Part shown: one piece after another, positions 18,693 to 53,522 of the stretch | Layout of the letters: every line of letters begins with the position of its first letter | Position numbering within the stretch: position 1 is the stretch's first letter | Source of the DNA: an uncultured Geobacter sp. | GTDB taxonomy: Bacteria; Myxococcota_A; UBA9160; JADFDR01 | Direction: 5' to 3' | Assembly: GCA_964424225.1 (NCBI GenBank) | Contig: CAYRID010000002.1 | Coordinates: forward strand, 2,254-66,253 | DNA: 64,000 bases | Made by a program: the position numbers and the translations under genes | The notes under the pieces: generated by a model | Databases searched by the model: none | What the model saw: the letters and a program-made list of their open reading frames with translations, nothing else | What the model was told of the DNA's origin: nothing

Positions 18693-20132
18693 TTGAGTCC
18701 TAGACGAGGAAGTGATTCCAACAACGAGAACCCAATGAATCGAGGTGGTCGCCGCAACGGCGGACGTCGCCGCAGCGGTGGACGCGGTGGCAATATGAAT
18801 CGCCAAGATCGCGGTCCGGAGATGTATGACATTTCCGACGAAGAAATCGGTAGTGACGACGAAGTCGATCCGAGCAAACGCGTTTATGTCCGTGATCTCA
18901 AGAACAAGTCAATGGAAGAACTCACCGAGCTTGCCGAACGCCTCAACATCGAGGGCGCGGCGGGGATGCGCAAACAAGATCTGATCTTCAATGTCCTCAA
19001 AGCCAAAAGTGAGAGCAGCGACGAGCGCGTGTACGCCGAAGGCGTGCTCGAATGTTTGCCCGATGGTTTTGGGTTTTTGCGTGCGCCGGATCAAAACTAT
19101 TTGCCCGGCCCCGATGACATCTATGTTTCTCCGTCGCAGATTCGCCGTTTTGGTTTGCGCACGGGTGATTCCGTGCAAGGACAAATCCGTTCGCCGAAAG
19201 AAGGCGAGCGATATTTTGCGCTGCTCAAAGTAGGTTCGATCAATTTTGAGCCGCCGCTTGCGAGCCGACGCAAAATTTTCTTCGACAATCTCACGCCGTT
19301 ATATCCGCAAGAGAAGTTCAACTTGGCGTATGACGGGGCAGGACTGACGACGCGGATCATCGATTTGGTGGCACCGATCGGCAAAGGTCAGCGTGCCTTG
19401 ATTCCGTCGCCGCCCAAGGCCGGCAAGACGATGCTTTTGAAGGACATCGCGAATGCGATCAGCACCGCGCATCCCGAGGTCTTCTTGATCGTGCTCTTGA
19501 TCGACGAACGGCCCGAGGAAGTGACGGACATGCTGCGCACCGTGAAGGCGGAAGTGATTTCGTCGACCTTCGATGAACCGGCCACCCGACACGTTCAAGT
19601 GGCGGAGATGGTGATCGAGAAAGCGAAGCGTCTCGTTGAGCACAAGCGAGACGTGGTGATTTTGCTCGATTCGATTACGCGACTTGCGCGCGCATACAAT
19701 ACGGTCGTGCCGCACTCCGGAAAAATTCTTTCGGGTGGTGTCGATTCGAACGCGCTTCACAAGCCGAAGCGTTTCTTTGGTGCAGCGCGCAATGTCGAAG
19801 AAGGTGGCAGTCTCACGATTGTGGGCACGGCACTGATCGATACCGGTTCGCGCATGGACGAAGTGATCTTCGAAGAGTTCAAGGGCACCGGCAATTCGGA
19901 AATCGTGCTCGATCGCAAACTCGCCGAACGCCGCACCTATCCGGCGATCGACATCAGCAAATCGGCGACGCGCCGCGAGGATTTGCTTTTGGATGACAAC
20001 ACGCTCAGCCGCATGTACATCCTGCGCAAAGTGCTCGCGCCGCTCAACCCGGTCGACTCCATGGAATTCTTGCTCGAAAAGATCAAGGCCACGGCCAATA
20101 ACGAAGACTTCTTGAAGTCGATGAACTCGTAA
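18693..20132 (+). CDS. rho: Transcription termination factor Rho with about 65-aa RG-rich/acidic N-terminal extension
   Basis: The core matches Rho ([57 protein letters not shown]). TTG at 18693 follows AGGAAGAGAGG. ATG at 18735 is an alternative start. Confidence 0.9.
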
Positions 20133-20214
20133 CCAACTCTTTGCAACCAACTGCTTTGCCGAACGGATTTTATCTTGTCGAAGCAGGGCGAATGAGCTAT
20201 CAGAAGGCCCCATT

Positions 20215-20415
20215 ATGAAGCCCGAAATTCATCCTCAATATCAAACCGTGCAGGTTCACTGTGCATGCGGCCAGCAGTGGGAGACACGTTCCACATTGCC
20301 GGAAATCCGCGTCGAAATTTGTTCCTCTTGCCATCCGTTTTTCACCGGCAAACAAAAGCTGGTCGATACGGCAGGCAAGGTGGAGAAATTCAAGCGCCGC
20401 TACACGAAGAAGTAA
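20215..20415 (+). CDS. rpmE: 50S ribosomal protein L31 (Zn-ribbon, Cys-containing form)
   Basis: MKPEIHPQY...CACG...[13 protein letters not shown]. Confidence 0.95.
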
Positions 20416-20495
20416 GCAGCGGCGGTTTTGCACCGACGTTCTCTTTCCTGTTTCGAGATTTTTCTCTCCGGGCGTGGACCGGTGTGAGATGACCT

Positions 20496-21572
20496 ATGTC
20501 GACGCTACTCGAACGCCTTGCTGAAATCGAAGCACGTGCGCGTGCCCTCGAAGAGCAACTTGCGGATCCCTCGCTTGCGGGCGGTTTTGCAGATTTTGCA
20601 AAGGTTGGAAAAAGTCTCGCCGAGTTGCGTCCAATTCTTGATGCAAGCGAACGCTATCGCGCTTTGCACACGGAACTCGAGGGCGCAAAAGCGATGCTCG
20701 ACGAGTCGGACGACGAGCTGCGCGAACTCGCGAAAAGCGAAGCGCAGCGTTTGTCGACGGAGCTCGAAGCGCTCGAAGCGCAAATTGAACAATTGCTGAT
20801 TCCCAAAGATCCGACGGACGCGCGCGACGTCATTCTTGAAATTCGCGCCGGTGCTGGCGGTGAAGAAGCAGCGCTCTTCGCAGCAGAACTCATGCGCATG
20901 TATTCGCGCTACGCCGAGCGCAAAGGTTGGCGCACCGAAATCCTTTCGCTCAGCGAAGCCGATGCGGGCGGTACGAAAGAAGCCATTCTCTCGATTAAGG
21001 GCAGTGGTGTATTTGGCCAGATGAAGCATGAGCGCGGTGTGCATCGCGTGCAGCGCGTGCCTGCGACGGAAGCACAAGGCCGCATTCACACTTCGACGGT
21101 GACGGTGGCGGTTTTGCCGGAAGCCGAAGAAGTCGACATCGAGATCAAGCCCGAAGACCTACGCATTGATGTGTTTCGCGCTTCAGGCCCTGGCGGACAA
21201 AGCGTGAACACGACGGATTCGGCGGTGCGCATCAAGCATCTCCCGACAGGCGTCGAAGTGCAGTGCCAAGACGAAAAATCGCAGCACAAGAACAAGGCGA
21301 AGGCTTTGCGCGTGTTGCGTTCGCGGCTTCTCGAAGCCGAACAAGCCCGCGCCGATGCCGAACGCGCAAGCGAGCGACGCTCGCAGGTAGGCACTGGTGA
21401 TCGCAGCGAACGAATTCGAACATATAATTTTCCACAATCGCGTGTCACAGATCATCGCGCGGGCATTACATTGCATTGCTTGGAAGATTGCATGGCCGGC
21501 GATCTTGATGAGCTCCTGACGGGAATTGCGAGTTATTTTGCCGCCGAAGTGCGGAAAAAGGCGCAGTTGTGA
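20496..21572 (+). CDS. prfA: Peptide chain release factor 1
   Basis: PAT tripeptide (RVPATE) and GGQ motif ([23 protein letters not shown]). Confidence 0.95.
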
Positions 21573-22501
21573 GTGACCAACACGATAAAGTGTCATCCGC
21601 TCAGCAAGGTCTCAATACCAAATCGAGAGAAGAGCCAAAGGTCGCAAAAAACTGGACGGTGCTCGAGCTTCTGCGCTGGACCACGAAGTATTTTCAAGAG
21701 CATGAACTCGAAAATTCGCGGCTCGATGCGGAATGCCTCTTGGCGCACGCACTCGGTTGTGATCGTCTTCGTGTGTATCTTGATTTTGAAAAACCGGTGA
21801 CGGATGCCGAGCGCGCACGCTTTCGCGAACTCGTACAGCGCCGCGCAAAAGAACGCGTGCCGGTGGCGCTGCTTACGAGTCACAAAGAATTTTGGTCGTT
21901 GCCGCTGCGCGTGACTTCGTTGGTGCTGACACCGCGTCCCGACACTGAAACGCTCGTGGCGTCGGCCCTCGATTTTTTGCGCGAGCGCGACAAAGCTTAT
22001 CGTGTGCTTGATCTTGGCACGGGCAGTGGCGCTGTGGCATTGGCAATAGCAAGCGAACGTCCGCATGCAAGCGTAACGGCGACGGATGTTTCGTCGGCTG
22101 CACTCGCCGTAGCGCGCGCCAATGTTGAGGCGCTCGGTCTGCAAGATCGCGTGCGTTGCATTGAGAGCGATTGGTTCGCTGCGCTCGCCGACGAAGTTTT
22201 CGATTTGATTGTTTCCAATCCGCCGTACTTGGCTGATGCAGAAGCCGCGACGCTTGCACCGGAACTCGCGCACGAGCCCGAAATTGCTCTTTTTGCAGGC
22301 CCGACGGGCTTTGAGGCGTTGCAGCAAATTGGCACGCAGGCGCAGCAGCACTTGCACGCAGGCGGTCTGCTTGCACTTGAAATCGCACCGAGCCAAGCCA
22401 AAACCGTGCAAGAGCACTTGCAGAGCGCCGGTTTTGTAGACGTCAAAATTTTGAAAGATTTGGCCGGGCGCGCGCGGGTTGTAGAAGCACGAAGCCCGTA
22501 A
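21569..22501 (+). CDS. prmC: Release factor glutamine N5-methyltransferase PrmC/HemK
   Basis: [14 protein letters not shown] and IVSNPPY motifs. GTGA overlap with prfA. Confidence 0.9.
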
Positions 22502-22588
22502 TCGGTGTAGGCTAGAGGTGTTTTCCCGAAGGGAGTCGCCCACTCGCCTCAAAAAAGTGTAATTCAGAACCATGAAAGCAGAGAAAGC

Positions 22589-23848
22589 ATGGATCGCATC
22601 ATCGTGAATGGAGGCCGTCGCTTGAGCGGCGAAGTGGCCATTTCTGGATCGAAAAATTCGACGCTTGCGTTGATGGCGGCTGCACTCCTCACCGACGAAG
22701 AAGTTGTGTTGCGCAATGTTCCACGCGTACGCGATGTGGACGGCATGCTTGCAATTTTCGAAGCGCTGGGGGCGAAGGCAAGCTGGGATTCGCAAGATCC
22801 GCACGCGGTGCGGATCAATGCCTCAAATTTGTGTCATTTCGAGGCGCCTTACGATCTCGTGCGAAAGATGCGCGCTTCTTTCATGGTGATGGGCCCCCTC
22901 GTGACGCGCTTTGGACAAGCGCGTGTGTCGGAGCCGGGTGGTTGTGCGATCGGCGTGCGTCCGATTGATCAACACTTGAAAGGCATTGAAGCACTCGGCG
23001 GCAAAGTGCGCCTCGATCACGGTTATGTGGAAGTGACGGGTGCACCGCTCGTCGGTGCAAATTTTTCGTTCGACATCACGACCGTCAACGGAACGCAGAA
23101 TGTGATGATGGCTGCGACCCTTGCGAAGGGTGAGACCGTGCTTGAAAACGCTGCGCGCGAGCCGGAAGTCGTTGAGCTTGCGGAAGTCTTGCGCAAAATG
23201 GGTGCGGATATCGAAGGCGAAGGCACGGACCGAATCGTGATTCGTGGAGTGACACATTTGCGTGGCATCGAGCACCGCGTTGCGGGCGATCGCATTGAGG
23301 CGGGTACTTTGCTCTGCGCAGCGGCCATCACTAAGGGTGATGTTTGGATTCGCGGTGTGCTGCCGGAGACGATGGGTGCCACGCTCGAAAAGTTACGCGA
23401 AATCGGCGTTGAGATTACGGTGCAAGGCGATTCGATTCGAGCGTGCGTGCCCGACGGCTTGCACGGCATTCATGTCACGACGGCGCCGTATCCAGGTTTT
23501 GCGACGGATATGCAGGCACAGATCATGGCGCTCTTACTCGTCGCCGAAGGCTCGAGCGTGGTGACCGAGAAAGTTTTTGAGAATCGCTTCATGCATGTGC
23601 CCGAGTTGCAACGCTTGGGTGCAGACATCACGCTCGACGGTCGCTCGGCACATCTTCGTGGCAATGCGCGTTTAATGGGAGCGCCGGTCATGGCCACAGA
23701 CTTGCGTGCATCGGCTGGGCTCTTGGTGGCGGCGCTTGCAGCCGAGGGCGAGACAACGGTGCATCGCGTCTATCACATTGATCGCGGTTATGAACGCATC
23801 GAAGAAAAATTAAAGAGCCTGGGTGCGGAAATCCGCCGGGAGGGATGA
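22589..23848 (+). CDS. murA: UDP-N-acetylglucosamine 1-carboxyvinyltransferase
   Basis: MDRIIVNGGRRLSGEVAISGSKNSTLALMAAALL..., active-site region PGGCAIGVRPIDQHL, and full-length similarity. Confidence 0.95.
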   Translation: MDRIIVNGGRRLSGEVAISGSKNSTLALMAAALLTDEEVVLRNVPRVRDVDGMLAIFEALGAKASWDSQDPHAVRINASNLCHFEAPYDLVRKMRASFMVMGPLVTRFGQARVSEPGGCAIGVRPIDQHLKGIEALGGKVRLDHGYVEVTGAPLVGANFSFDITTVNGTQNVMMAATLAKGETVLENAAREPEVVELAEVLRKMGADIEGEGTDRIVIRGVTHLRGIEHRVAGDRIEAGTLLCAAAITKGDVWIRGVLPETMGATLEKLREIGVEITVQGDSIRACVPDGLHGIHVTTAPYPGFATDMQAQIMALLLVAEGSSVVTEKVFENRFMHVPELQRLGADITLDGRSAHLRGNARLMGAPVMATDLRASAGLLVAALAAEGETTVHRVYHIDRGYERIEEKLKSLGAEIRREG

Positions 23849-25227
23849 CGATGGCGAGTCGGGCAGGGTCAAAAGAGTTGCTCTCCGTCTTGAAAACGGA
23901 AGATTCAAAATTTGAAGCCGCCTTTAAAAAGTTGGTAGAGCGCCGCTTTCGCGACGACGACAGCGTCGAGAAAACAGTACGCAAAATTCTTGCAAGCGTG
24001 CGTGAACGTGGCGACACCGAGTTGTTGGCGTTGACCGAAAAATATGATGGCGCGACACTGAAAAGTTTAGAGGTGACAAAACGCGAATGGGACGATGCGG
24101 TCGCAAGCGTCGATCCTGCAAATCGCGCGGCGATTGGTAAAGCTGCGATGCGCGTACGCGAATTTCATCGTAAACGTATTCCGTCGAGCTGGGAGATGCG
24201 TGAAGAAGGAGGCGCTTTCATGGGGCAGCGCCTGCGCCCGCTTGAGCGCGTTGGCATTTATGTTCCGGGTGGCAAGGCCTCGTATCCGTCGAGCGTGATC
24301 ATGAATGCAGTGCCGGCCTCGGTGGTTGAAGTTCCGGAAATCGTGATGGTGACGCCACCCGATGCCGAGGGACGAATTCGTCCGGAAGTGTTGATGGCGG
24401 CGCGCGTGGCGGGAGTACATCGCGTATTCAAGATTGGTGGCGCGCAAGCCGTGGCAGCGCTTGCTTACGGTACGCAGAGTGTGCCGCGCGTCGATAAGAT
24501 CGTGGGACCCGGAAATGTGTATGTTGCGACGGCAAAGCGGCTTGTGTTTGGTGAAGTAGGGATCGATCTCGAAGCCGGCCCGAGCGAGATTTTGATTATT
24601 GCCGACAAAACGGCGACACCGGCGTGGATCGCGGCGGATTTGCTCTCTCAAGCGGAACACGATGAGATGGCGTGTCCGATCTTGGTGACGCACGTGAAAC
24701 CGCTTGCTGCACGCGTGCAAGAACAGCTCGAAAAACAGCTTGCTGATCTCAAGCGCGCCAAAATTGCACGCGAGTCGCTTTCGAAACACGGCGCGATCAT
24801 CGTGACGAAGAATCTCGAAGAATCGATTGCAATTTCGAATCGCTATGCACCCGAACATTTGGTGCTGGCGCTGGAAGACGCCGACGTGGTGTCCAAGAAA
24901 ATTACGAATGCTGGGGCATTGTTTTTAGGGCACTACACGCCCGAAGCGGTCGGAGATTATTTGGCAGGACCAAGTCATGTGCTTCCGACGGGTGGAACGG
25001 CGCGCTTTTTCTCACCGCTTGGTGTAGAGGACTTCTTGAAACGAATGAGTGTTATACGTTTTGAGCCGGCAAAACTGCGTGAACTCGGGGTCGATGTCAT
25101 TCGGTTGGCGGAGATTGAAGGCCTTGCGGGACACGGTATGGCCGTGGAGTTGCGTTTGCAAAAAATTCGGCGCGCTCGTCGTGAACGCGATGCATCACGC
25201 GACGGTGGCGACGCAGAGGAGGCATGA
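23845..25227 (+). CDS. hisD: Histidinol dehydrogenase
   Basis: GIYVPGGKASYPSSVIMNAVPA...GPGNVYVATAKR...QAEHDE...APEHL. ATGA overlap with murA. Confidence 0.9.
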   Translation: MTMASRAGSKELLSVLKTEDSKFEAAFKKLVERRFRDDDSVEKTVRKILASVRERGDTELLALTEKYDGATLKSLEVTKREWDDAVASVDPANRAAIGKAAMRVREFHRKRIPSSWEMREEGGAFMGQRLRPLERVGIYVPGGKASYPSSVIMNAVPASVVEVPEIVMVTPPDAEGRIRPEVLMAARVAGVHRVFKIGGAQAVAALAYGTQSVPRVDKIVGPGNVYVATAKRLVFGEVGIDLEAGPSEILIIADKTATPAWIAADLLSQAEHDEMACPILVTHVKPLAARVQEQLEKQLADLKRAKIARESLSKHGAIIVTKNLEESIAISNRYAPEHLVLALEDADVVSKKITNAGALFLGHYTPEAVGDYLAGPSHVLPTGGTARFFSPLGVEDFLKRMSVIRFEPAKLRELGVDVIRLAEIEGLAGHGMAVELRLQKIRRARRERDASRDGGDAEEA

Positions 25228-30891: not shown

Positions 30892-32748
30892 ATGGCAACT
30901 GTCAATCCGTCAGCAAATTCAAAGGGGCTTGTACGCAGAACAGCCGCTACAAACAAAAGTATGAAAATTGAAAAAGCCAAGCAGCTCAAAGTTTCCAACG
31001 ATACGCTTGAAAGTGTTGCGATGACGCACTTGGCTGAAGTGCAAGAACTCGTTGCGCTGGGGCTTCGTAAGGGCGGGCTTACATATGACGAGATCAACAA
31101 TGGGCTTCCACGGCAAATTGTGCAGGCCGGTGCGATCGAAGCCGTTTTTGAGTTTCTAACGGAAAAGGGCGTGAACATCGTCGATGAAAAGCGCGTGCTA
31201 CGCAAACCGGTGCCGCGCAAACGAAATGGCGCAGCGGAGTCGCACGAAGACAACGAGCACCATACGAATGATCCGGTTCGTGTGTACCTGCGTGAAATGG
31301 GTCAAGTAGCGCTTTTGACGCGCAGTGGAGAGGTGGAGATTGCGCAGCGTATCGAAGCGGGCCAAGAGCGACAAAATCGCTTGATGATCGGCACGCCCTT
31401 TGGCATGCGCGAGTTGCTACGTATTTTTGAGTCGTATCGAAATGGACAAATCGAGTTGCGCGAGTTGTTGATGGGCCTTGATGAGGAGGAGCCGGTGCTT
31501 GACCTCGAAGAGCGTCGTGCACAGTTCGAGGCTGTGATCGAACAAATCAAGACTCTCGAGGGTGAAGTAGCGCGGCGCCTCAGCGCGATGGCGAATTCGC
31601 GAACCAGCGATGCGACGCGTGTACGGTTGCAGCGCGAGATGGAAGAGCGTTATGGCGAGACGCTTACACTTCTTGGTGATATTCGTTTTAAGAATGTTCA
31701 GATTCAGCGTATGACGGAGCGCTTGGAAGCAATCGATCAGGAGGCGCGGCGCATCGAGCGATTTGCGCGTAAGGCGATCGAAGGTTATGCGGTTTCAGGA
31801 ATTGCAGAATTTCAGAAGCTCGCACTTCTCGCCACGCGGCGCAGTAAGCCGGGTAAAGAGGCGCTGACGAAATTGGGTGGCGATTTGGCGCGGGTCGAGC
31901 GTAGCGTCGGTGAACTAGACGGAATTTTGCGCGCACTCGATAAAATTGAATCCGATACACGGATGAGTGTCTCGGCGATTCGTACGACAGTTTCCGAGTA
32001 CAAAGATGCGGCGCGCGTAACGCATCAAGCCAAATGTGAATTGATCGAGGCCAACTTGCGACTCGTGGTATCGATTGCAAAGAAGTACACGAGCCGCGGT
32101 TTGCAATTTTTGGATTTGATTCAAGAGGGCAATATCGGCTTGATGAAAGCCGTTGAAAAATTTGAGTGGCGGCGTGGTTATAAATTTTCGACGTATGCAA
32201 CGTGGTGGATCCGTCAAGCCATCACGCGTGCGATCGCGGATCAAGCACGCACGATTCGCATTCCGGTGCACATGATCGAAACGATCAACAAGCTTGCGCG
32301 GGCAAGTCGTCAACTCGTACAGGTGCTCGGGCGCGAGCCTACGCCTGAGGAGTTGACCGAGAAACTCGATCTGCCGATCGAAAAAGTGCAGATGGTTTTG
32401 AAAATTGCGAAGGAGCCGATCAGTCTGGAGTCGCCGGTGGGCGAAGATGAGGACAGCACTCTGGGCGATTTCATCGAGGACAAGAATGTGCTGAATCCCC
32501 ACGATACGGTTCTCGAAGAAAATCTTGCCGATCAAACGCGCAAGGTGCTGGCGACGCTCGGTCCGCGCGAAGAGCGCGTGCTCAAGATGCGCTTTGGTAT
32601 CGGAGAGCGATCCAACCATACACTTGAAGAGGTGGGGCAAGATTTCGATGTTACGCGTGAGCGCATACGCCAAATTGAGGCGAAGGCCTTGCGTAAACTT
32701 CGCCATCCAAGTCGTAGTCGTTTGCTCAAAGCCTTTATCGAAAATTAA
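30892..32748 (+). CDS. rpoD: RNA polymerase primary sigma factor (sigma-70)
   Basis: Regions 1.2 ([11 protein letters not shown]), 2 ([65 protein letters not shown]), 3 and 4 ([30 protein letters not shown]). Confidence 0.95.
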
Positions 32749-41663: not shown

Positions 41664-44024
41664 CTACTCAAAGAAAATTGAATCTCGGGTTTTCTTCGGT
41701 TCCTTGATGCGAGGAAAAGCGCCAAAACTGAGGTCACTGGCAGAACCTTGCAGCACGAGTTCAACGGGCAAAATAGATTCTCGACCACGTACAAGACCGT
41801 ATTTTTCACGCAGGCTAAGGAAGGCGAAGCTCGATCGTGCAGCGTGCCGTGGTGCATTTTCTGTGGCTACGCCGAGACGTGCACGTTCAAAGAAAAGATC
41901 GCGCTGTGCATCGGGCGCGTACTCGTAGTCACGATCCGTTAGCGTGAGTGCAAGAGATTGCTCTTCGAGTTGAGCCACGATCTTTGCAAGGCGCTCCGGA
42001 GAAATTGCTTGGCGTGCGGTGACGGGCGCCTTTTTCTTTTCGCCGCGTTCATTGAGGTAATGCACGGCGAGCACGGTGCCACCTTCAAACGTGACGCCTT
42101 GCGGATGCAACTCCCCATTATTGGGATTTCCGTCGAGAAGCTCCGGTCGAAGGCCAAGACCATTCGGGCCTGCGAATTCGGGATTTTCTTCGAGATATCC
42201 GCGCGAAACGCGAATGGCCTGCGGTGCGAGCTCGAGAACTTCCGCACGCACTTGCAGGCCTGCTTCGCGACCAGCTCGAGTTTTGGGATAGCGACGCACA
42301 ATTTCTTGGAGCATCGGAATGCGCACTTCGAGACGCGGTTGTTTTTGCGTTGCCTGCAAGGCTTGCTTCGCCGCTTTTTCTTCGAGGCGCAGCAATTTTT
42401 TTGAAGGCTTGACGTTTGTTGGTGTATGGCGATTTGCAATTTCATGCGCTGCAATCCAGTTGCCCCGCAGTTTTTCGTAGTCCTTCAGCCAGTTTTCGAC
42501 GGAGGAGATTTCTTTTCCGTCGGGGTAGCGCGTTCGGTAGAGGCCTGCGAAGTAATAAGGAGTGCGCCCAAAGGGCCACGGAGAAAGCCAGGGATAATGT
42601 AAAATTCGCTCGGGCATTCCGACGAGGACATCAGCGAAATAGGGAGCGTCGAGGATCCATTCCAGCATGCGCGGCAAGTCGCGATCTCTTGCACCCGAAG
42701 CGAGCGGCCCAAGTAAAATCCAGCGTGTTTGCAGCCAGCGATCGCTGCTGCGGGATCGCTTGAAAAAGGCAAATGGATTTTGGATGGGATTGTTGAGTAA
42801 CGCTTTAGAGTGTATAGTCATGTTTTCATTGCGATGACGTCGTTGCTCTGCTTGCTGCAAAATCTTCCAACTCGTCGTGTCGTTGCCGCGTTCCATCTCG
42901 CGCATGGCGAGTGCGAAACGAACTTCATCGGCCCATTGACTTTGCTCGCGCGGATCGTCGGTGCGCAGTTGTTGCACAATTGTGTCAGTCTCTGTATCGG
43001 AGCGCAGCAGCGCCACCGCCAGATGTTGCTCTGTCGCATCGGGTGTTGGCAGTTGATTCGGAGCTTCGAGGCTTCGCGCACGCTTTGCATTTTGCTCTTC
43101 GACTTGCTGTAAGGCCTTTTCCCCAAGCACTTGAGCTTTTGCGTCTTCAGGGCTTGTGCGCATCGCTTGCTCGGAAAAGGCAAGTGCAAGCTGTGGCTCG
43201 CCGCCGCGCAAGGCGCGGCGGGCTTTGCGCAGTAGCTGATCGCGGCGAGTTTTTTGCAACTCGATATTGGCCTCGTCAATTTTGCGCGCGAGTTCGGGAG
43301 CTTCGTCGCTGTCAGGATGGCGACGCAATTCTTCGCGCCAGTAGTACAGAGCCTGCCGCTCATAGATCGAAAAATCATCATCGAGATGTCGCGTTGATGT
43401 CCACTCGACGAGTGAGCGTACAAAACCCACGATGGGAGTGCCTCCCGATAGCATGCTGCGTCCGACGGGTTCGGCGAGCATATTGAATACTTGCCCAAAG
43501 GAGTGTTGATGATCATCGCGCATTCGCGCTTTGCTGAGCAGGAGAGGATCGTCGGCGACTTCATGTTCGAGCCGCGTGCGCAAGGGTTTTGGAAGATGGC
43601 CTTGTTTTAGGAGTGCACGCGTTGCGCTGCGATATTTGCGTGGATCCGCATGCATGGAGTCGACGAGATTTTGTGCGTAGGCCGAAAGATCGCTACTCGA
43701 TTTTGTGTTGGGCCACCAATTCATTTTTTTCTGTTGAAAAGTTGCGTTGCTTTGGGTTTCGATTTTGCGGAGTGAAACCAACAATTCTTCGGCTCGTGCA
43801 CGATCCTTCAAGAGCGCTGCAGAAAGTAAATCGCGCGTGGCCAAGTCGGTCTCGTCGGGCAGTCGTACGGGTTGAAGCGGTGCGGCCTCCAGCGGTGCAT
43901 AGGCGGGGATCGCGGTGGTGCGTGCGCACCCACTAACGGCACTCATCATCCCAAGATAGATCAACACAAAAAAGAGTCGTGTCCAATTTTTCTGTGTTGT
44001 AGTTTTAGGGCGTAAAGCGATCAC
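41664..44024 (-). CDS. Large hypothetical lipoprotein (786 aa), mostly helical
   Basis: Signal peptide plus lipobox (FFVLIYLGMMSAVSGC). Long, uninterrupted and co-directional with neighbours, with a 20-nt overlap with the upstream gene. No motif recognised. Confidence 0.55.
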   Translation of the reverse strand: MIALRPKTTTQKNWTRLFFVLIYLGMMSAVSGCARTTAIPAYAPLEAAPLQPVRLPDETDLATRDLLSAALLKDRARAEELLVSLRKIETQSNATFQQKKMNWWPNTKSSSDLSAYAQNLVDSMHADPRKYRSATRALLKQGHLPKPLRTRLEHEVADDPLLLSKARMRDDHQHSFGQVFNMLAEPVGRSMLSGGTPIVGFVRSLVEWTSTRHLDDDFSIYERQALYYWREELRRHPDSDEAPELARKIDEANIELQKTRRDQLLRKARRALRGGEPQLALAFSEQAMRTSPEDAKAQVLGEKALQQVEEQNAKRARSLEAPNQLPTPDATEQHLAVALLRSDTETDTIVQQLRTDDPREQSQWADEVRFALAMREMERGNDTTSWKILQQAEQRRHRNENMTIHSKALLNNPIQNPFAFFKRSRSSDRWLQTRWILLGPLASGARDRDLPRMLEWILDAPYFADVLVGMPERILHYPWLSPWPFGRTPYYFAGLYRTRYPDGKEISSVENWLKDYEKLRGNWIAAHEIANRHTPTNVKPSKKLLRLEEKAAKQALQATQKQPRLEVRIPMLQEIVRRYPKTRAGREAGLQVRAEVLELAPQAIRVSRGYLEENPEFAGPNGLGLRPELLDGNPNNGELHPQGVTFEGGTVLAVHYLNERGEKKKAPVTARQAISPERLAKIVAQLEEQSLALTLTDRDYEYAPDAQRDLFFERARLGVATENAPRHAARSSFAFLSLREKYGLVRGRESILPVELVLQGSASDLSFGAFPRIKEPKKTRDSIFFE

Positions 44025-44979
44025 GATCGATCCTCAAAGTAAACGCGAGAAGTTCTTCGAGTTTGCGCGCCGCTTCAATTTTTTCGGGTGAACCATCCTG
44101 ACTCGAAACATTTTGATAAATCTGTGTTGCCGCATCGATGAGTTCACGAAAAGAAACCGGATCAAATTGCAGCGATTCAGGAGCATTGCGATCAACGTAT
44201 TCACGTGCGATTTCTGCATAGAGGTCAGCGAGTGCGATCAAATGGCGTCGCGAATTTTTGCTGTTGTGGTGCTTCATGGCAAGTTGTTGATATTCGGCGA
44301 GCGCACGCGGATTTCCGTCTGGATCCGCATGACGCAGACTGGCGTAGTAGAGTGCTCTCGACATGTCCATATGCTCGACTTCTTCTTGAATAACGAAACG
44401 ATAATGTGTCGATGAATTAGCGCTGAGTAGAGCTTCGAGTAGCGCGCTGCGCTTTGCAAAAATTCCTTCGGCTTGCTCGCTGGTTTTTGGAAATGGTGTC
44501 GACGCTTCGTTGGAGAACGGAGCACTGCGGAAGAATTCGAACTGCAGGGCTTCGTCGAGCGCATCGCAAACGGCTGCGCCTTCGAGCGCCTCTTGGCGCA
44601 GTGGAGAGTTCTCGTATTGGGCTACTTTGCGATAGTTTTCCGCGGCCAGATCAAAAGCGCGCAAGCGTTCGAGTGCGCGAGCCTTTGAAAATGCGAGCAC
44701 GGGATCCATGTGCCCGGCGCGCAGTGCATCCGCATGAACGCGCTCAATGTTTTCAAGGCGCAGCAAGGAAGCGCGATATACGTTCCTTCCCGTGAAGTCT
44801 CGCGCGGGATCGAAACGGTAGGTGTCGTCGGGAATATGGCGCCGCAGCACGGAGACGACTTCAAGAAGATTTTCCGGTGCGCGATACTGTGCGTCGGCTT
44901 GAAGCGAAGATCCAATGCAGCCCACAAGGCTACTTGCGCAAAGAACACAAAAAAGAGTTATTGAACAAACGTATTTCAC
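44005..44979 (-). CDS. Hypothetical lipoprotein (324 aa), TPR-like helical
   Basis: GTG at 44979 gives MKYVCSITLFCVLCASSLVGC, which carries a lipobox. This start forms a GTGA overlap with the cimA stop. The listed ORF's extra 99 N-terminal codons overlap cimA and are Arg/Cys-rich nonsense. Confidence 0.55.
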   Translation of the reverse strand: MKYVCSITLFCVLCASSLVGCIGSSLQADAQYRAPENLLEVVSVLRRHIPDDTYRFDPARDFTGRNVYRASLLRLENIERVHADALRAGHMDPVLAFSKARALERLRAFDLAAENYRKVAQYENSPLRQEALEGAAVCDALDEALQFEFFRSAPFSNEASTPFPKTSEQAEGIFAKRSALLEALLSANSSTHYRFVIQEEVEHMDMSRALYYASLRHADPDGNPRALAEYQQLAMKHHNSKNSRRHLIALADLYAEIAREYVDRNAPESLQFDPVSFRELIDAATQIYQNVSSQDGSPEKIEAARKLEELLAFTLRIDRDRFTP

Positions 44980-46589
44980 GAGCTGCGTAGCCTCGACTTT
45001 TTTCCTGCTGTCGTGGTCTTCGTCTCTTTGGTCAATTTCGCACCGGTCGTTGCACGACTTGGCGCAACGATGTTGAGCATTTTTTCGGTGGCAGTTACGG
45101 CTGCAGCCAGTTGATCGCGCGCAACACCGAGAGTTGAAAATCCCCCCTCTTCTTCCTCCTTGCCCCAGCTGATTCGTGTCTCGACGAGCGCCTCCGTACG
45201 TCCGCCTGGAGGAATTCGTACACGAAAGTCGGTAAGCTGAGGAAGTTCGACACCGAGCGGCTGTACGGCTTTGCACAGCGCTTTCATAAAGGCGTCATAG
45301 CCGCCGTCGCCGCTAGCCGATGCCGTTTCGAGTTTTCCCGCAAAGCGTACTGCGATTTCGGCTGTCGGTGTTTCATTCGAACCTACACAGACGCGATACG
45401 ATTCAATGCGGATTACGCTGCGCCCCGGTGCGTCGAGTACATCGGCGATGATCATCGGCAGGTCTTCAAGCATGACGGTGTGCTTCTTGTCGCCAAGCTC
45501 GATGATGCGACGTAACACTTTTTCGTGATCTTCGACAGAAAGCGTGATGCCGAGATTTTTTAAGTTGTGATCGAGGGAAGCTTTGCCGGAAAGTTTTCCG
45601 AGGGCATAGCGTCGTTTGCGACCAAAGCGATCGGGTGCCAAGCGGCTCGCGTAGAGTTCACCCTTGGCATCACCGTCGGCGTGTACGCCGGCTGTTTGTG
45701 TGAATACGTCGCGTCCGACGATCGGAGCGTTGGGCGGAACGTTTTTGCCGGTGAAAGTCTCGACAAGGCGCGACAGTGCAGTTAGGCGCTCTTCGTTCAC
45801 GCGCGTTCGAAAGGGCGAATGATCGTGCAAGGCCGCAACGACTTCGGCGAGTCGACTGTTGCCCGCACGCTCACCAAGGCCATTCACGCTTGTGTGTATA
45901 CCGCGCGCGCCAACGCGTACGGCCGCCAAGCAGTTGGCTGTGGCGAGCCCGTAATCGTTGTGTCCGTGATATTCGAAGTGAGCTTGTGGCCAAGCGGTGA
46001 CCATGGCGCCGAGGTATCGCTCGATGTCGCTTGGTGCGAAAATTCCGAGGGTGTCCGGCAGGTAGATGCGCTCGACTTCCAAGCGCATCAAAGCGCGCAC
46101 GAGGTCGGCAACGTAATCGAAGCTCTGGCGTACGCCGTTGGACCAATCTTCGAGATATACATTGACTTTCACTTTTTTGTGTTTGGCGTAGCGCACGACC
46201 TCGTCGATTTTTTGCAGGTGAGCTTCGGGCGTTAAGCGTAGCTGCGTGCGGCAGTGGTGTTCGGAGCCTTTGGTCAACAGGTTGAGTGTCATTCCACCAA
46301 CTTGTGTAATCCAATCGACGGATTTTTTTCCGTCACAAAAACCAAGAATCTCGATCTGCGCCAAGCGATCCGTTTTGCGCGCCCAATCGGTGATCAAGCG
46401 AGCAGCCTCGGCTTCGCCTTGAGAAACTCGCGTCGAGGCGATCTCAATGCGATCGACGGTGACTTCCGCAAGTAGCATTCGTGCGATCTGCAATTTTTCT
46501 GCAGGAGTGTAAGAGATATCCGGTGTTTGTTCGCCATCGCGAAGCGTGGTGTCCATGATGGAAACGAGTTGTTCCGAGTCTTTGCCCAT
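44976..46589 (-). CDS. cimA: (R)-citramalate synthase (LeuA/CimA family, Leptospira/Geobacter CimA-like)
   Basis: MDTTLRDGEQTPDISYTPAEKLQIARMLLAEVTVDRIEIAS...HGHNDYGLATAN...GLGERAGN...TQTAGVHADGDAKGELY...GDGGYDAFMKAL...IPPGGRTEALVETRISW tracks the Leptospira CimA sequence closely, as I recall it. Confidence 0.85.
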   Translation of the reverse strand: MGKDSEQLVSIMDTTLRDGEQTPDISYTPAEKLQIARMLLAEVTVDRIEIASTRVSQGEAEAARLITDWARKTDRLAQIEILGFCDGKKSVDWITQVGGMTLNLLTKGSEHHCRTQLRLTPEAHLQKIDEVVRYAKHKKVKVNVYLEDWSNGVRQSFDYVADLVRALMRLEVERIYLPDTLGIFAPSDIERYLGAMVTAWPQAHFEYHGHNDYGLATANCLAAVRVGARGIHTSVNGLGERAGNSRLAEVVAALHDHSPFRTRVNEERLTALSRLVETFTGKNVPPNAPIVGRDVFTQTAGVHADGDAKGELYASRLAPDRFGRKRRYALGKLSGKASLDHNLKNLGITLSVEDHEKVLRRIIELGDKKHTVMLEDLPMIIADVLDAPGRSVIRIESYRVCVGSNETPTAEIAVRFAGKLETASASGDGGYDAFMKALCKAVQPLGVELPQLTDFRVRIPPGGRTEALVETRISWGKEEEEGGFSTLGVARDQLAAAVTATEKMLNIVAPSRATTGAKLTKETKTTTAGKKSRLRSS

Positions 46590-46657
46590 TTTGATTCATC
46601 TCATTTGCGAGCTGTTGTGCGAGCTCAATTTTTGCAGAGCATCGTATAGCGTTTGCT

Positions 46658-46904
46658 GAAAAATACGAAGGCCGCGGTGACTTGCCGCGGCCCCAAAGGC
46701 GTTCTCGTGACCGCGACCGTCACCGCTCCATAATTTTTTCAATAATCGGAATCACGCGAAGAGAGTGCAAAATTTTTTCTGCGGCGGACGAGACAAGTGC
46801 TCTGCGCGACGACTCGCAAGATACGCGCGGTGGAAAAGATGTTTTTGCGGTGGGAGCGAAACAAGGCATGAAGTCGAGCTTATCGGCGTGCCTCCCTCTG
46901 TCAA
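46658..46904 (-). promoter_or_regulatory. Candidate cimA leader: promoter, Ile-codon-rich leader ORF, antiterminator/terminator
   Basis: On the minus strand: TTGACA (46904-46899), 16 nt, TAAGCT (46882-46877). A 49-codon ORF (46869-46720) ends ...LRVIPIIEKIMER. TCGCGGTC (46716-46709) can pair with GGCCGCGG (46692-46685), which otherwise pairs with CCGCGGCC (46677-46670). That hairpin is followed by TTCGTATTTTT. Confidence 0.4.
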
Positions 46905-46928
46905 GCAAGGCGGTTACACTGGACTGCC

Positions 46929-47891
46929 ATGAGTTCATCCAAAGTCGATTCGTCGGCGCATATTTTTGAAATGAAAACTTCGCCTTCAGAAGTGAAGCCA
47001 CTGCGCCTTGATGTTTTTCTCGGCCGTGAACTTGCGCTTTCGCGTGCACAAGTTCGGCGCTTGCTCGTCGGTGGTCGTGTGCGTATTGCGGGGCGTATTG
47101 CGAGCGAGCGCGACAAGGGGCGGGTGTTGCTTCCCGGAACGCAAATCGAGGTCGACGCTTTTGTCGGTGGAGCTGCGCAGCAAATTTTGCCCGAACCTGC
47201 GCGCGAGCTTCAAATTTTGGCGCAAGGAAGCGGTTGGGTCGCCTGTGCAAAGCCGGCGGGGATGTCCGTTCATCCCTTGGACGCCGCTGAGCGGGGTTCG
47301 CTGGCGGGAGCAGTCGTTGCGCGTTTTCCGCAAATGCAGGGTGTGGGCGAGGGGGGCCTCCGAAGTGGAGTTTTGCACCGTCTTGATTTGCCGACTTCGG
47401 GCGTAGTGATCTTTGCCACCGAGGAGGGCGCTTGGCAGTGTTTGCGTCGCGCTTTTGCGGAGCATCGAATTGTGAAGCGTTATCTCGCATTGGTTTGGGG
47501 CCGCGTTGAAGGGGAAGGATGCGAGGAACACTGGCTCAAGGTTGCGCAGCATCGGCCCGCGCGCGTGCGCGTTGTGCCAAAGGAACGTGCGAGCGAAAGC
47601 GGTGTGCGCAGGACACGGCTTGAGTGGAAGGTGATTGAAAATTTTCGCGATGCGACATTGCTCGAGGTGATGCTCGAAACAGGCTTCTTGCACCAAATTC
47701 GCGCGGTTTTTTCGCATCGAGGCTATCCGGTCGTCGGCGATGCGACGTATGGTTCGCTTGAGCGCGATTGCGAAGTCGGCACGCCGCGCTTGATGCTCCA
47801 TGCGGAACGACTTGCTTTTGAAGAGATCGAAGCCACGTGCGCGATGCCTGCCGACTTTTGTGCGGTTCGAGATTATTTCCAGAGAAGATGA
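46929..47891 (+). CDS. RluA-family pseudouridine synthase with S4-like N-terminus
   Basis: LRLDVFLGRELALSRAQVRRLL (S4-like), catalytic HRLDLPTSGVVIFA, and GFLHQIRAV. Confidence 0.8.
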   Translation: MSSSKVDSSAHIFEMKTSPSEVKPLRLDVFLGRELALSRAQVRRLLVGGRVRIAGRIASERDKGRVLLPGTQIEVDAFVGGAAQQILPEPARELQILAQGSGWVACAKPAGMSVHPLDAAERGSLAGAVVARFPQMQGVGEGGLRSGVLHRLDLPTSGVVIFATEEGAWQCLRRAFAEHRIVKRYLALVWGRVEGEGCEEHWLKVAQHRPARVRVVPKERASESGVRRTRLEWKVIENFRDATLLEVMLETGFLHQIRAVFSHRGYPVVGDATYGSLERDCEVGTPRLMLHAERLAFEEIEATCAMPADFCAVRDYFQRR

Positions 47892-47964
47892 GCGCCGAGC
47901 GAAGCGGTGCAGAGACGTGCAGTTTGTGTGAGCAAGTTAGTCTGTATGTCGGAGAAACAAAAAA

Positions 47965-48702
47965 GTGTCGGAGCAAGAAAAAATTCTTACGGGACGAACG
48001 GCGATCGTCACGGGAGCCGGGACGGGGATTGGCGCAGCGGTGTCCAAGGCTTTTGCGGCACAGGGTGCGCACGTTGTGCTCGTGGGGCGACGGCGTATGC
48101 CACTCAATCAGACCGCGAAAGAGATTCACGCTTGTGGCGGTGCTTGTGATGTAGTGCGCGCGGATGTCAGTGACCTCGGTGATGTGCGAAGTCTCTTTAA
48201 AGCAGCAAAGCGGCTCGGTACGGGGCGCGTTGACATCGTCGTGAACAATGCAGGAATTTTGGGGCCGCGTGCGCCGCTCGTGCGTTATCCGCTACGTGCT
48301 TGGGACGAAGTGATGCGTATCAACGCGCGCGGTGCTTTTTTGGTTTTGCAAGAGGCTTTGAAGGCCATGCAGCCCGGTGGTGGTTCAATCGTGAATGTGT
48401 CGTCGAGCGTGGGGCGCCGTGGCCGTGCCGAATGGGGTGCTTATTCAGCATCGAAGTTTGCGATCGAGGCACTCACGCAAATTGCGGCAGAAGAAAATCA
48501 AGGTACAGGAATTCGTGTCAATGCGGTAAATCCGGGAGCTACGCGTACGGCGATGCGGGCGCGGGCGTATCCAAAGGAAAATCCAGTTGCACTTCCGACT
48601 CCGGAAAGTGTTATTCCGGTTTTTTTGTTTCTGGCGAGTGATGAATCGAAAGAAATAAACGGGCAATCGCTTGCTGCGCGTGAGTTTGTTTGGCCAAAGT
48701 AG
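47965..48702 (+). CDS. Short-chain dehydrogenase/reductase (YciK-like)
   Basis: TAIVTGAGTGIGAAV, NNAG, and S...YSASK catalytic motifs. Confidence 0.75.
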   Translation: MSEQEKILTGRTAIVTGAGTGIGAAVSKAFAAQGAHVVLVGRRRMPLNQTAKEIHACGGACDVVRADVSDLGDVRSLFKAAKRLGTGRVDIVVNNAGILGPRAPLVRYPLRAWDEVMRINARGAFLVLQEALKAMQPGGGSIVNVSSSVGRRGRAEWGAYSASKFAIEALTQIAAEENQGTGIRVNAVNPGATRTAMRARAYPKENPVALPTPESVIPVFLFLASDESKEINGQSLAAREFVWPK

Positions 48703-48792
48703 CAGCGACATCCATTCGTGTTGGTTAGTCAGTTCGTGTGTTGTGTGGAAATGCGACTGAAAAAATGCAATGCAGCAAAAGTGGAGAAAAGA

Positions 48793-50532
48793 ATGAAATC
48801 GTTTTGGCGTGTTTTGATCATCTTGGGCTTGCTGCTACTTGGATGGAGCTGGCTTCGAATGCAGTCGCGTGTCGTTGTGGATCCCGGGTCGGTGTTGATC
48901 GTTGAGCTTGGCGGTGTGTACGTCGATGCGCCGGATCCCCCAGTGCTTGCACGTGTGCTGGGTCATGGCTTCGTACCGTTTGCACGCGTGCGCGATCTTT
49001 TTGTCAAGGCGGAGCGCGATTCGCGCATTGAGCGCGTCGTCGTCAAAATTACTCCTCTTGAAATTGGGTGGGCGAAGGCGCAAGAGCTGCGCACGCTCAT
49101 TACACTTCTTCGTGACGCCGGGAGGCATCCCGTTGCATATCTTGAAGTAGAGAGCTTTGGTTCGAACCTTGAATACTATGTGGCGTCGGCGGCAGAAGAA
49201 ATTTATGTCGCACCGGCGACGCGAATGCCTTTCCTTGGTTTGGCCTCGGAGTTTTTGTTTCTCGGTGGCTTGTGGGAAAAACTAGGTATCGAAGTTGAAG
49301 CCGAGCGAATTGGAGAGTACAAGACAGCGGTGGATTCTTTGACGGGCAAAAGTATGTCCGAGGCTCACCGCGAAGTCGCCAATGCAATTCTCGATTCGAT
49401 GGAAGAGCAATTTGTGCAGGCAATCTCGACGTCCAGAAGTGTTACACAAAACGATGTTCGTGATGCTATGCAAGAAGGTCTTGTGACGCTTTCTGCATTG
49501 CAAGAGCGGCATTTGATTGATGGCATTTTGTCTTTCGAGGCATTGCTTGAAAAGTATGGTCAAAATTTACAACAGCTTGAAGAGAGTCAGATCGTTTTTG
49601 ATCATGAATATGCGTCGGTGTCCGCGGAGGAAGTGGGTTGGAATCCGAAGGCGAAGTTTGCGCTGATTTACGCATCGGGCAATGTCGTAACGGGCGAAGC
49701 ACCCAATTCGCTTTCTGGCGAACCGGTGGCGGCGGCGGATACAATCGTCGAGGCGATTCAAGCTGCGGTTGAGGATTCCGAGATCAAAGCGATCGTGCTG
49801 CGCGTCGATAGTCCCGGCGGTTCTCCTCTTGCTTCGGATTTGATTTGGCAAGCGGTCGAGGCCGCGAAAAAAGCGGGCAAACCGGTTGTGGCTTCGTTCT
49901 CTGATCTCGCGGCTTCGGGCGGTTATTACTTGGCGTGCGGTGCCGATCGGATCGTGGTTGAACCCGGCACGTTGACCGGTTCCATCGGTGTTTTTGTCTT
50001 GCGTCCGGTGATTGCAGGCTTGCTCGACAAGCTTGGCATTGCTCACGAAACGCTAACGCGTGGTCAACACGCAGGAATGTTGCTTTCGACTCAAAAGCTT
50101 TCTCCGGCATCGCGTCATAAGCTACAAGAAGATGTGTCGAGTGTGTATGAACAATTTTTGGAGCGCGTAGCGAGTGGGCGCTCCATGTCGCCGCAAGCCG
50201 TCGATGTGCTCGCGCGCGGCCGAGTTTGGACGGGAGTGCAGGCTGTAGAAAAAGGACTTGCCGATCAAGTGGGAGGACTTCGCGAAGCGATGCGCGAAGC
50301 GAAGAAGCTTGCGTCGATTCCGGAGACCGATGACGTTTCGCTCGTGATTTATCCGCCGCACAAGCCGCTGTCCGTACAAATTGCAGAGGCGTTGAATGGT
50401 CAGATGGCGTTTGCTTCCCAGGCGGAGATTTTGCCGCTTCCGCCGCTTCTCAAGAAAGCTGCGCGAGCGGTCGAAACTTGGCCAGAGCCCACGCCGCTCC
50501 TTGTGCTGCCGTTCGTAATCGAAATTCGCTGA
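48793..50532 (+). CDS. sppA: Signal peptide peptidase SppA, 67K (two-domain) type
   Basis: N-terminal TM segment (FWRVLIILGLLLLGWSW). Two ClpP/crotonase-like halves, the second with VASFSDLAASGGYYLACGADRIV. ATG at 48793 follows GGAGAAAAGA. Confidence 0.85.
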   Translation: MKSFWRVLIILGLLLLGWSWLRMQSRVVVDPGSVLIVELGGVYVDAPDPPVLARVLGHGFVPFARVRDLFVKAERDSRIERVVVKITPLEIGWAKAQELRTLITLLRDAGRHPVAYLEVESFGSNLEYYVASAAEEIYVAPATRMPFLGLASEFLFLGGLWEKLGIEVEAERIGEYKTAVDSLTGKSMSEAHREVANAILDSMEEQFVQAISTSRSVTQNDVRDAMQEGLVTLSALQERHLIDGILSFEALLEKYGQNLQQLEESQIVFDHEYASVSAEEVGWNPKAKFALIYASGNVVTGEAPNSLSGEPVAAADTIVEAIQAAVEDSEIKAIVLRVDSPGGSPLASDLIWQAVEAAKKAGKPVVASFSDLAASGGYYLACGADRIVVEPGTLTGSIGVFVLRPVIAGLLDKLGIAHETLTRGQHAGMLLSTQKLSPASRHKLQEDVSSVYEQFLERVASGRSMSPQAVDVLARGRVWTGVQAVEKGLADQVGGLREAMREAKKLASIPETDDVSLVIYPPHKPLSVQIAEALNGQMAFASQAEILPLPPLLKKAARAVETWPEPTPLLVLPFVIEIR

Positions 50533-52765: not shown

Positions 52766-52958
52766 CACGCGGTAGCGCATGGAATCGTTCTTCGAATATC
52801 GCAAGAAAAGTCGCGAAATTTCATTGGAACCTTGTTTTGCTTGTATTGTGTTCCAAGCGTTTTCTGCTAGAAAGATCGGACAGAACAGCGAGAACGGATA
52901 GGCCGTTTCCTGGCTCGGATTTTTCAAAGAACAGAACAAAGAATTGAAAGGGACCATC

Positions 52959-53465
52959 ATGGTTCGACAGAAAGTTTTGCGCTTGGTTTTTGCGTCGTTT
53001 GCCATTGCGTTGATTGCAACGGGTTGTAAGACGACGAAGGGCACTGGAGATGAAGCGGGTGCGGGTGCTGCAGGCGGAGAAGGAACTTCGGGTCGGCACG
53101 GCGTCAGTGTTGAAGACGTTGGTGTTCCGACGGAGCTTCTCAAAACGGTGTACTTTGACTACGACCGCTCGGAGATTCGCAGCGACGCGAAGGCGACGCT
53201 CAAGAACAACGCAGCGGCAATCAAAGAGAACACCACTTGGAAGCAGATCACGATTCAAGGTCACTGCGATGAGCGCGGTAGCGAAGAATACAACCTTGCT
53301 CTTGGTGAGCGCCGTGCGACAGCCGTGAAGAAGTATTTGCTGGCACTCGGTGTTCCCGAGACGCGTCTTGTGACGATCAGCTTCGGTGAGTCGGTGCCGG
53401 CCGTTGATGGTCACACGGAAGATGCTTGGTCGAAGAACCGCCGTGGCGAGTTCTCGGTGAAGTAG
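52959..53465 (+). CDS. pal: Peptidoglycan-associated lipoprotein (OmpA-C domain)
   Basis: Lipobox FAIALIATGC. OmpA-like YFDYDRSEIRSDAKATL...IQGHCDERGSEEYNLALGERRA...NRR. ATG at 52959 follows AAGGGA. Confidence 0.87.
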   Translation: MVRQKVLRLVFASFAIALIATGCKTTKGTGDEAGAGAAGGEGTSGRHGVSVEDVGVPTELLKTVYFDYDRSEIRSDAKATLKNNAAAIKENTTWKQITIQGHCDERGSEEYNLALGERRATAVKKYLLALGVPETRLVTISFGESVPAVDGHTEDAWSKNRRGEFSVK

Positions 53466-53488
53466 CGATTGCTTTGTGCAAGTTGAAA

Positions 53489-53522
53489 GGGGTGCTTCTT
53501 CGAAGCACCCCTTTTTCTTTTT
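53489..53522 (+). terminator. Rho-independent terminator after pal
   Basis: GGGGTGCTTC (53489-53498), loop TTC, GAAGCACCCC (53502-53511), then TTTTTCTTTTT. Confidence 0.85.

Follow-up and report, generated by a model that had tools for sequence, protein, structure and literature searches.

A candidate isoleucine-responsive leader-peptide attenuator upstream of a cimA-like gene in an uncultured Myxococcota-affiliated lineage

The ilvGMEDA (ilvL), ilvBN (ivbL) and thr leaders of enterobacteria are led by a Shine-Dalgarno sequence, comprise 21-32 codons and form a 1:2 pause hairpin, and they are multivalent (Ile/Leu/Val or Thr/Ile). Escherichia coli pyrBI has a leader open reading frame (ORF) of 44 codons, which senses uridine triphosphate (UTP) via polymerase pausing and lacks a stop-codon-spanning antiterminator. 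Feedback inhibition is the control otherwise known for CimA, the (R)-citramalate synthase. Here we describe the leader of a cimA-like gene on the minus strand of a 64,000-nt stretch of contig CAYRID010000002.1 (assembly GCA_964424225.1; the whole stretch is hereafter called the window), which probably forms a ribosome-mediated leader-peptide attenuator. As in pyrBI, a long leader ORF would be translated by a ribosome that must keep pace with the polymerase to govern the terminator, but the leader differs from pyrBI in its amino-acid codons and in an antiterminator that spans the stop codon.

In Actinobacteria, the ilvL, leuL and trpL leaders of Streptomyces lividans comprise 12-29 codons and are transcribed without a 5' untranslated region, with hairpins and U-rich stretches downstream (PMC8079986), and ilvBNC of Corynebacterium glutamicum carries a three-hairpin attenuator (IlvL) on a leaderless mRNA (PMC11857589). 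T-box riboswitches upstream of branched-chain amino-acid genes respond to tRNA charging by forming either a terminator or an antiterminator (PMC12452182). The cimA leader would share with the T-boxes of ilv, leu and ileS genes a terminator/antiterminator choice made by tRNA charging, but Stem I, the specifier loop and the T-box sequence are all missing from it, and its proposed sensor is the translating ribosome. T-boxes and the known leader families (Leu/His/Thr/Trp) were rejected as candidates because Rfam gave no match to them in the window or the leader: no family matched at gathering thresholds across the window, and at E ≤ 10 the region 46400-47100 returned only noise (e.g., microRNA and small nucleolar RNA models) and no RF00230.

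Conserved elements of the cimA leader

Relatives of the locus were obtained via a protein database and its cluster members, and four lineages were compared: the window with L014 and L015, which are of the same species; L016; L011/L012/L017-L020; and L021 (GCA_018262735.1). The CimA proteins of the latter three lineages were 92%, 87% and 85% identical to that of the window. The RpoD proteins of L016 and L021 were 90% and 83% identical to the window's, and the next relatives stood at ~62%, the nearest named ones being metagenome-assembled genomes (MAGs) of Myxococcota. Based on these identities, the window and its three relatives stand for four lineages that are well separated within a deep, uncultured clade. 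Across them the leader consisted of invariant blocks alternating with fully diverged sequence. A comparison of leaders in relatives had been suggested in a preliminary description of the window, and the isoleucine-rich ORF and the hairpin that it pointed out were kept in all four diverged lineages.

The promoter block of the leader, P1, read GTGTAACCGCCTTGCTTGACA-N16-TAAKCT across the four lineages, its -10 hexamer being TAATCT in L016 and L021. In L021 the 16-nt spacer had diverged with both hexamers and their spacing intact, and we therefore regard the block as a promoter signature. The pattern TTGACA-N16-TAAGCT-N7-ATG (46904-46867, minus strand) occurred once in the window, against 0.00 occurrences expected. 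The ATG lay exactly 7 variable nt past the invariant -10 hexamer in the alignment of all four lineages. No Shine-Dalgarno-like sequence or alternative in-frame start was conserved across the four aligned lineages, which leaves a leaderless start as the sole conserved way of translating the frame. Judging from promoter geometry alone, transcription would start at the ATG at 46869 or a few nt away. A leaderless ORF had been rated the most speculative part of the preliminary description; through this conserved start codon it has become one of the best-supported predictions.

The divergent RluA-family gene on the plus strand had its own invariant sequence, GG(T/C)TACACT, followed by 8 variable nt and an ATG in all four lineages (46905-46931), and this gene is probably leaderless, or nearly so, as well. 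One invariant divergent promoter block of ~45 bp is shared by rluA and the cimA leader.

The frame from the leader ATG was open for 49, 50, 51 and 54 codons in the four lineages and ended in the same aligned column, with TAA instead of TGA in L016 at the cost of one antiterminator pair. The remaining two frames contained stops in the four lineages, and indels within the ORF netted to multiples of three. The leader peptides were only 22-46% identical among lineages (20-33% over the N-terminal three quarters), compared with 85-92% for CimA and 66-81% for the RluA-like neighbour of the same lineages. In view of this low identity and the lack of a Pfam match to the peptide, a functional small protein encoded by the leader ORF was rejected.

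The C-terminal end of the leader ORF (...LRVIPIIEKIMER) was rich in isoleucine. In the window, ATT codons were located on the minus strand at 46752-46750, 46746-46744, 46743-46741 and 46734-46732, with an additional one at 46773-46771, in agreement with the five ATT codons described previously. Each of the four lineages had 3-4 isoleucines within codons -10 to -3, counted from the stop codon. At the background of 5.1% isoleucine in the window, the binomial probability of 3-4 isoleucines in 8 codons ranged from 4e-4 to 6e-3 across lineages, with four isoleucines and P = 4e-4 in the window leader. The isoleucine at -10 was encoded by ATT in all four lineages, those at -8, -4 and -3 were each present in three, and those at -7 and -13 each in two. 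Isoleucine positions swapped between ATT and ATG, with one synonymous ATC, and it looks as though the number of isoleucine codons is preserved rather than the exact sequence. The final 13 leader codons aligned without gaps, and none occurred from the isoleucine cluster through the 5' arm of the antiterminator (segment 2). An explanation by codon rarity was rejected, as ATT makes up 47% of the isoleucine codons in the window genes.

The leader ORF is separated from cimA by an intrinsic terminator in all four lineages, and transcription is predicted to end there. Its DNA on the minus strand comprises GGCCGCGG (46692-46685), the loop CAAGTCA (46684-46678), CCGCGGCC (46677-46670) and TTCGTATTTTT (46669-46659), the same GC-rich hairpin, 7-nt loop and tract that had been noted before. 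With 10 pairs, of which 8 were G-C, it was the top terminator-like site in a consensus scan of 44000-49000 and one of two strong hairpin-plus-U-tract sites in a scan of the 64 kb. The 8-bp core was invariant except for one compensatory change, C-G to U-A, in L021. The terminator, the block that follows it and the promoter pattern were each unique in the window, and a repetitive extragenic palindromic (REP)-like element was rejected on these grounds.

The second strong terminator (53485-53515, plus strand), canonical for the intrinsic type, was a perfect 12-bp hairpin, AAAGGGGTGCTTC-TTC-GAAGCACCCCTTT, followed by TTTCTTTTT, and began 20 nt past the stop codon of a Pal/OmpA-like ORF (52944-53465, plus strand). 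Since this site follows the 3' end of a gene, hairpin-plus-U-tract signals appear to serve as terminators in this genome.

Alternative helices and the proposed isoleucine switch

Across the whole leader, segment 2, which spans the stop codon, was the best pairing partner for the 5' half of the terminator in each lineage. GCGGUGAC (46726-46719) pairs with GUCACCGC (46681-46674) and GUCGCGGUC (46717-46709) pairs with GGCCGCGGC (46692-46684), forming a bipartite helix of 17 bp (46726-46709 with 46692-46674). The preliminary description had recognized a shorter antiterminator segment, TCGCGGTC at 46716-46709; this sequence is present, but the real helix is larger and includes the stop codon. Folding of the RNA, which had been proposed as a check, yielded the alternative structures, with the antiterminator within the minimum free energy (MFE) structure of the leader. 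Energies favoured the antiterminator over the terminator in the window (-32.2 vs -19.2 kcal/mol), L016 (-23.9 vs -18.7 kcal/mol), L011 (-26.5 vs -18.7 kcal/mol) and L021 (-20.3 vs -16.3 kcal/mol). The antiterminator duplex of the window (-34.2 kcal/mol) was stronger than all 1000 dinucleotide shuffles (p < 0.001), and the corresponding p values were 0.009, 0.007 and 0.031 for L016, L011 and L021, respectively. In an alignment of six distinct sequences, 90% of the antiterminator cells were paired. Pair 55-95 of this alignment changed from G-C to A-U in L021, and because its 3' partner sits in the terminator loop, the change supports the antiterminator specifically.

The effect of a translating ribosome was modelled with partition functions of RNA that was masked as far as 13 nt past the first A-site nucleotide. 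When isoleucine codon -10, -8 or -7 occupied the A site, the antiterminator had a probability of 0.87-0.995 in the window, L016 and L011. A ribosome placed at codon -4 or -3 gave the terminator a probability of 0.5-0.99, and one placed at the stop codon gave it ~0.99 in all four lineages. Since the masking model yields the antiterminator there, codons -10, -8 and -7 and the isoleucine codons upstream of them would be the sensing codons. Stalling at the isoleucine codons had been proposed to free the antiterminator segment; in the fold model this holds for -10, -8, -7 and upstream codons, but not for -4 and -3. Under these assumptions the switch behaves as an attenuation model requires. Segment 2 was also predicted to pair with upstream ORF sequence. 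A classical 1:2 anti-antiterminator is not supported, as the complementarity was at shuffle level in three of the four lineages.

Based on these elements, we propose the following sequence of events. Transcription from P1 would start at or near the A of the ATG at 46869, and the 49-codon ORF would be translated without a 5' untranslated region. When isoleucyl-tRNA is plentiful, the ribosome would reach the UGA (46722-46720). Because this stop codon is part of the antiterminator 5' arm, the ribosome footprint would cover 46726-46709, letting the terminator (46694-46668 plus the U tract) form and halt transcription near 46660. Under a shortage of charged tRNA-Ile, the ribosome would stall on the ATT codons at -10, -8 and -7 (46752-46741) or further upstream. 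The free 5' arm would then pair with 46692-46674 over 17 bp and remove the left arm of the terminator, allowing the polymerase to enter cimA.

The sequence comparison and the fold model thus favour a ribosome-mediated leader-peptide attenuator that would tune cimA transcription to isoleucine supply, and we consider this reading likely. The isoleucine-sensing attenuator of the preliminary description is supported by both the comparative and the folding tests: start, stop, spacing and isoleucine codons are kept and the peptide is not.

Several points weigh against the proposed attenuator. The elements of the leader, their conservation, their energetics and their geometry are observed; attenuation, translation of the ORF and the isoleucine response rest on computation, the transcription start, translation and response being deduced from sequence. 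The openness of the leader ORF is weak evidence alone (P ~0.3 per lineage in shuffles), and frames on the reverse strand across the leader are likewise open. Among the long ORFs of the window, taken at their first start codons, the -10-N(6-8)-start layout was found elsewhere only at rluA. Covariation is thin: in the six sequences each helix has one double change, and its covariation score was matched in 84-93 of 500 column shuffles. In L021, the antiterminator was marginally competitive, with a probability of just 0.27-0.63 when the A site was on -10, -8 or -7. Without translation, the window leader was predicted to adopt the antiterminator, those of L016 and L011 the terminator, and that of L021 a mixture. 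The 1:2 pause/anti-antiterminator pairing was no better than shuffles in three of the four lineages, L016 being the exception. The isoleucine codons at -4 and -3 are predicted to be unproductive, and their reverse complement, xATAAT, is a promoter-like -10 element on the opposite strand. Transcription of cimA could also bypass the attenuator if the invariant block past the terminator is a promoter. The target itself is less than certain: the 44976-46589 product scored highest against the NCBIfam equivalog for (R)-citramalate synthase CimA, but its 664 bits fall short of the cutoff of 950 (the second-best match, an isopropylmalate synthase family, scored 335 bits). Finally, the genes apparently co-transcribed with cimA resemble lipoproteins unrelated to isoleucine.

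The promoter-like element on the opposite strand was detected by a promoter scan of the plus strand as GTGACC-N16-CATAAT (46707-46734), whose -10 lies antisense to leader codons -4 and -3 (ATTATG). The CATAAT position reads AATAAT in L011, GATAAT in L016 and AATCAT in L021, so that three lineages have the xATAAT form. A putative antisense promoter towards rluA might contribute to the conservation of isoleucine positions -4 and -3.

Table 1 Positions of the leader elements and neighbouring genes in the window.
Feature	Position	Strand	Basis or remarks
P1 -35 hexamer, TTGACA	46899..46904	-	Invariant in four lineages
P1 -10 hexamer, TAAGCT, 16 nt after -35	46877..46882	-	Hexamer and spacing kept
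Leader ORF, 49 codons + TGA	46720..46869	-	ATG 46869-46867, stop 46722-46720
Isoleucine codon cluster, ATT at -10, -8, -7 and -4 from stop	46732..46752	-	Conserved enrichment
Antiterminator 5' arm (segment 2), GCGGUGAC, G, GUCGCGGUC	46709..46726	-	In leader MFE structure; contains UGA stop
Antiterminator 3' arm (segment 3): terminator left arm, loop and start of right arm	46674..46692	-	Folding
Predicted intrinsic terminator, GGGGCCGCGG-CAAGUCA-CCGCGGCCUU then CGUAUUUUU	46659..46694	-	Hairpin and U tract
Invariant element after terminator, 34 nt	46639..46672	-	RNAalifold hairpin or weak promoter candidate
cimA-like gene, putatively regulated, 537 aa	44976..46589	-	NCBIfam match
Two ORFs 3' of cimA, 324 aa and 786 aa	41664-44979	-	No Pfam/NCBIfam match
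RluA-family pseudouridine synthase gene, divergent	46929..47891	+	Family match; shares invariant promoter block with cimA leader

Other explanations and genomic context

The most conserved stretch of the leader, exceeding even the terminator, was GCAAACGCTATACGATGC (46656-46639), which was invariant in all lineages; alignment columns 46656-46642 were 100% identical across the four. RNAalifold placed a hairpin at 46672-46639 (GC..UCGUAU/AUACGA..GC with an AGC-AAAC-GCU tip), which overlaps the right arm of the terminator and is compatible with the antiterminator. Its few variable positions lay in the internal loop, apart from one A/G change that retains the pair with U; all pairs are otherwise invariant, and the hairpin therefore offers no covariation evidence. 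It would form too late to influence the termination decision. Read as a promoter, the block has the form TTCGTA-N17-TACGAT (46669-46641), matching 7 of 12 consensus positions, but a simple promoter is disfavoured because the 'spacer' is invariant too. The block could be an RNA hairpin, a weak promoter or a protein site.

The position of this block, directly after the terminator, brings up the explanation that P1, the ORF and the hairpin constitute an independent small gene for a protein or small RNA, with the cimA promoter in the invariant block and no attenuation. The -10-like part of the block does resemble the sequence upstream of cimA in two relatives, L002 and L004 (CGCGATACGCTGC, with GTGGCA 17 nt before), and relatives at 69-71% CimA identity manage with an intergenic region of 82-109 nt and no leader. 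On the other hand, the near-neutral evolution of the peptide beside a well-conserved CimA, together with its missing Pfam match, argues against a protein, and the candidate promoter, with its 7/12 match, was absent from the output of the promoter scan. The 'spacer' of the block, invariant unlike that of P1, points to a base-specific RNA or protein function, and a plain terminator needs no conserved, stronger competing helix that spans a stop codon. We regard an independent small gene as unlikely.

Another explanation keeps the terminator/antiterminator switch but takes as its input a small ligand, RNA-binding protein or other signal that stabilizes one of the folds, the ORF and its isoleucine codons being incidental. 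The two alternative helices are indeed the best-supported parts of the leader, the openness of the ORF is just modestly improbable, and the invariant block beside the terminator could be a protein-binding site. Such an input leaves unexplained the ATG fixed 7 nt from the -10 hexamer, the stop codon held at one column despite the helix-weakening TGA to TAA change, the gap-free spacing from the isoleucine codons to segment 2, and an isoleucine enrichment that matches the pathway. In addition, no Rfam family, T-box included, matches the leader, and the antiterminator loop varies in sequence and length, unlike an aptamer. A non-ribosomal input thus seems improbable. That the hairpin, ORF and isoleucine codons are a functionless chance combination in a GC-rich intergenic region is very hard to credit: open frames are common in the region and the whole-leader fold is no more stable than shuffles (z = -0.56), but strong terminators are rare in the window, the duplex beats shuffles in all four lineages, the helices show compensatory changes, and block-wise conservation stands beside fully diverged sequence in four lineages.

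The proposed attenuator may be extended, speculatively and with rather little probability, in three ways. The long 5' part of the leaderless ORF, free of sequence constraint, could serve as a timer and non-specific anti-antiterminator in place of the 1:2 hairpin; the 34-nt block could be a second, independent module (a structured RNA, a protein site or an internal promoter) giving cimA control by two inputs; and an abundant terminated leader RNA or the ~50-aa peptide might act in trans. In the rhizobial trp attenuator, RNA and peptide reportedly act in trans.

More distant relatives lacked the leader: three contigs with a CimA identity of 69-71% and, at 64-66%, seven loci from genomes and two from metagenomes (L008, L009); a third metagenome locus, L010 (27%), was left out of this comparison. 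These homologues at 64-71% were mostly from MAGs labelled Myxococcota or Deltaproteobacteria and kept the order rluA, cimA, ~320-aa ORF and ~770-aa ORF. Their rluA-cimA intergenic regions were just 82-109 nt long or otherwise different, and therefore they added no covariation. Since syntenic relatives lack it, the leader element appears to be a recent, lineage-specific gain. In L002 (~1100-1170) and L004 (~2860-2930), a long near-perfect inverted repeat, TTGCGTTGGGGACGTA...TACGTCCCCAACGCAA, was found between rluA and cimA. It has no U tract and represents a different leader element in these Myxococcota MAGs.

The preliminary description had stated that there is no minus-strand gene upstream of cimA to terminate, and the upstream neighbour is in fact the plus-strand RluA-family gene; all its other sequence statements on the minus strand were likewise correct. 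On the minus strand, a 256-aa ORF (46720-47490) shares the reading frame of the leader ORF; it was rejected as a genuine upstream gene, having no family match and being antisense to the well-supported RluA-family gene. Downstream, the 324-aa ORF overlaps the 3' end of cimA by 4 nt and is overlapped by the 786-aa ORF by 20 nt. Both N-termini are lipoprotein-like (...LVGC and ...VSGC). The two ORFs remain syntenic with cimA even in the relatives at 69-71% and are odd partners for an amino-acid biosynthesis gene.

Elsewhere in the window, housekeeping genes were found at 18693-25227 and 30892-32748 (both plus strand), namely rho, prfA, prmC, murA, hisD, rpoD, RNase E/G, obg and proBA. The RpoD of the window was ~58-62% identical to the nearest named sequences, which are MAGs of Myxococcota or Deltaproteobacteria, and the organism therefore belongs to a deep, uncultured lineage.

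Significance and comparison with known systems

In the full-text literature, which was covered incompletely, neither a leader-peptide attenuator on cimA nor attenuators of this kind in Myxococcus turned up. If the proposed attenuator is real, it would be the first found in the searched literature for the citramalate entry to isoleucine synthesis, and ribosome-mediated attenuation, including the leaderless form of Actinobacteria, would reach an uncultured Myxococcota-affiliated lineage. An isoleucine-codon leader would also be independent evidence that this LeuA-family enzyme serves isoleucine rather than leucine synthesis, which is useful given the sub-cutoff CimA score. The apparent recent gain of the leader would offer a case study in the origins of attenuators.

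The mechanism would be textbook leader-peptide attenuation, and what is new is the cimA target and the uncultured lineage. As in the enterobacterial leaders, isoleucine codons would set the choice between antiterminator and terminator, and a ribosome at the stop codon would mask the 5' strand of the antiterminator. Unlike the enterobacterial leaders, the cimA leader appears to be leaderless, has a long ORF with essentially isoleucine-only codons, and would control the citramalate entry step. By analogy of design, the closest described relatives seem to be the actinobacterial leaderless leader peptides, with which it shares an ORF at the transcription start (here predicted), cognate codons, competing hairpins and a U-rich terminator. 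It differs from them in its length (49-54 codons vs 12-29), in its Myxococcota-affiliated host, in having cimA rather than ilvB or leuA as the target, and in showing no sequence similarity. The C. glutamicum attenuator includes an anti-antiterminator in a supported three-hairpin design, whereas the third hairpin is unsupported here, and the cimA leader would choose between two helices by the position of the ribosome on its isoleucine codons.

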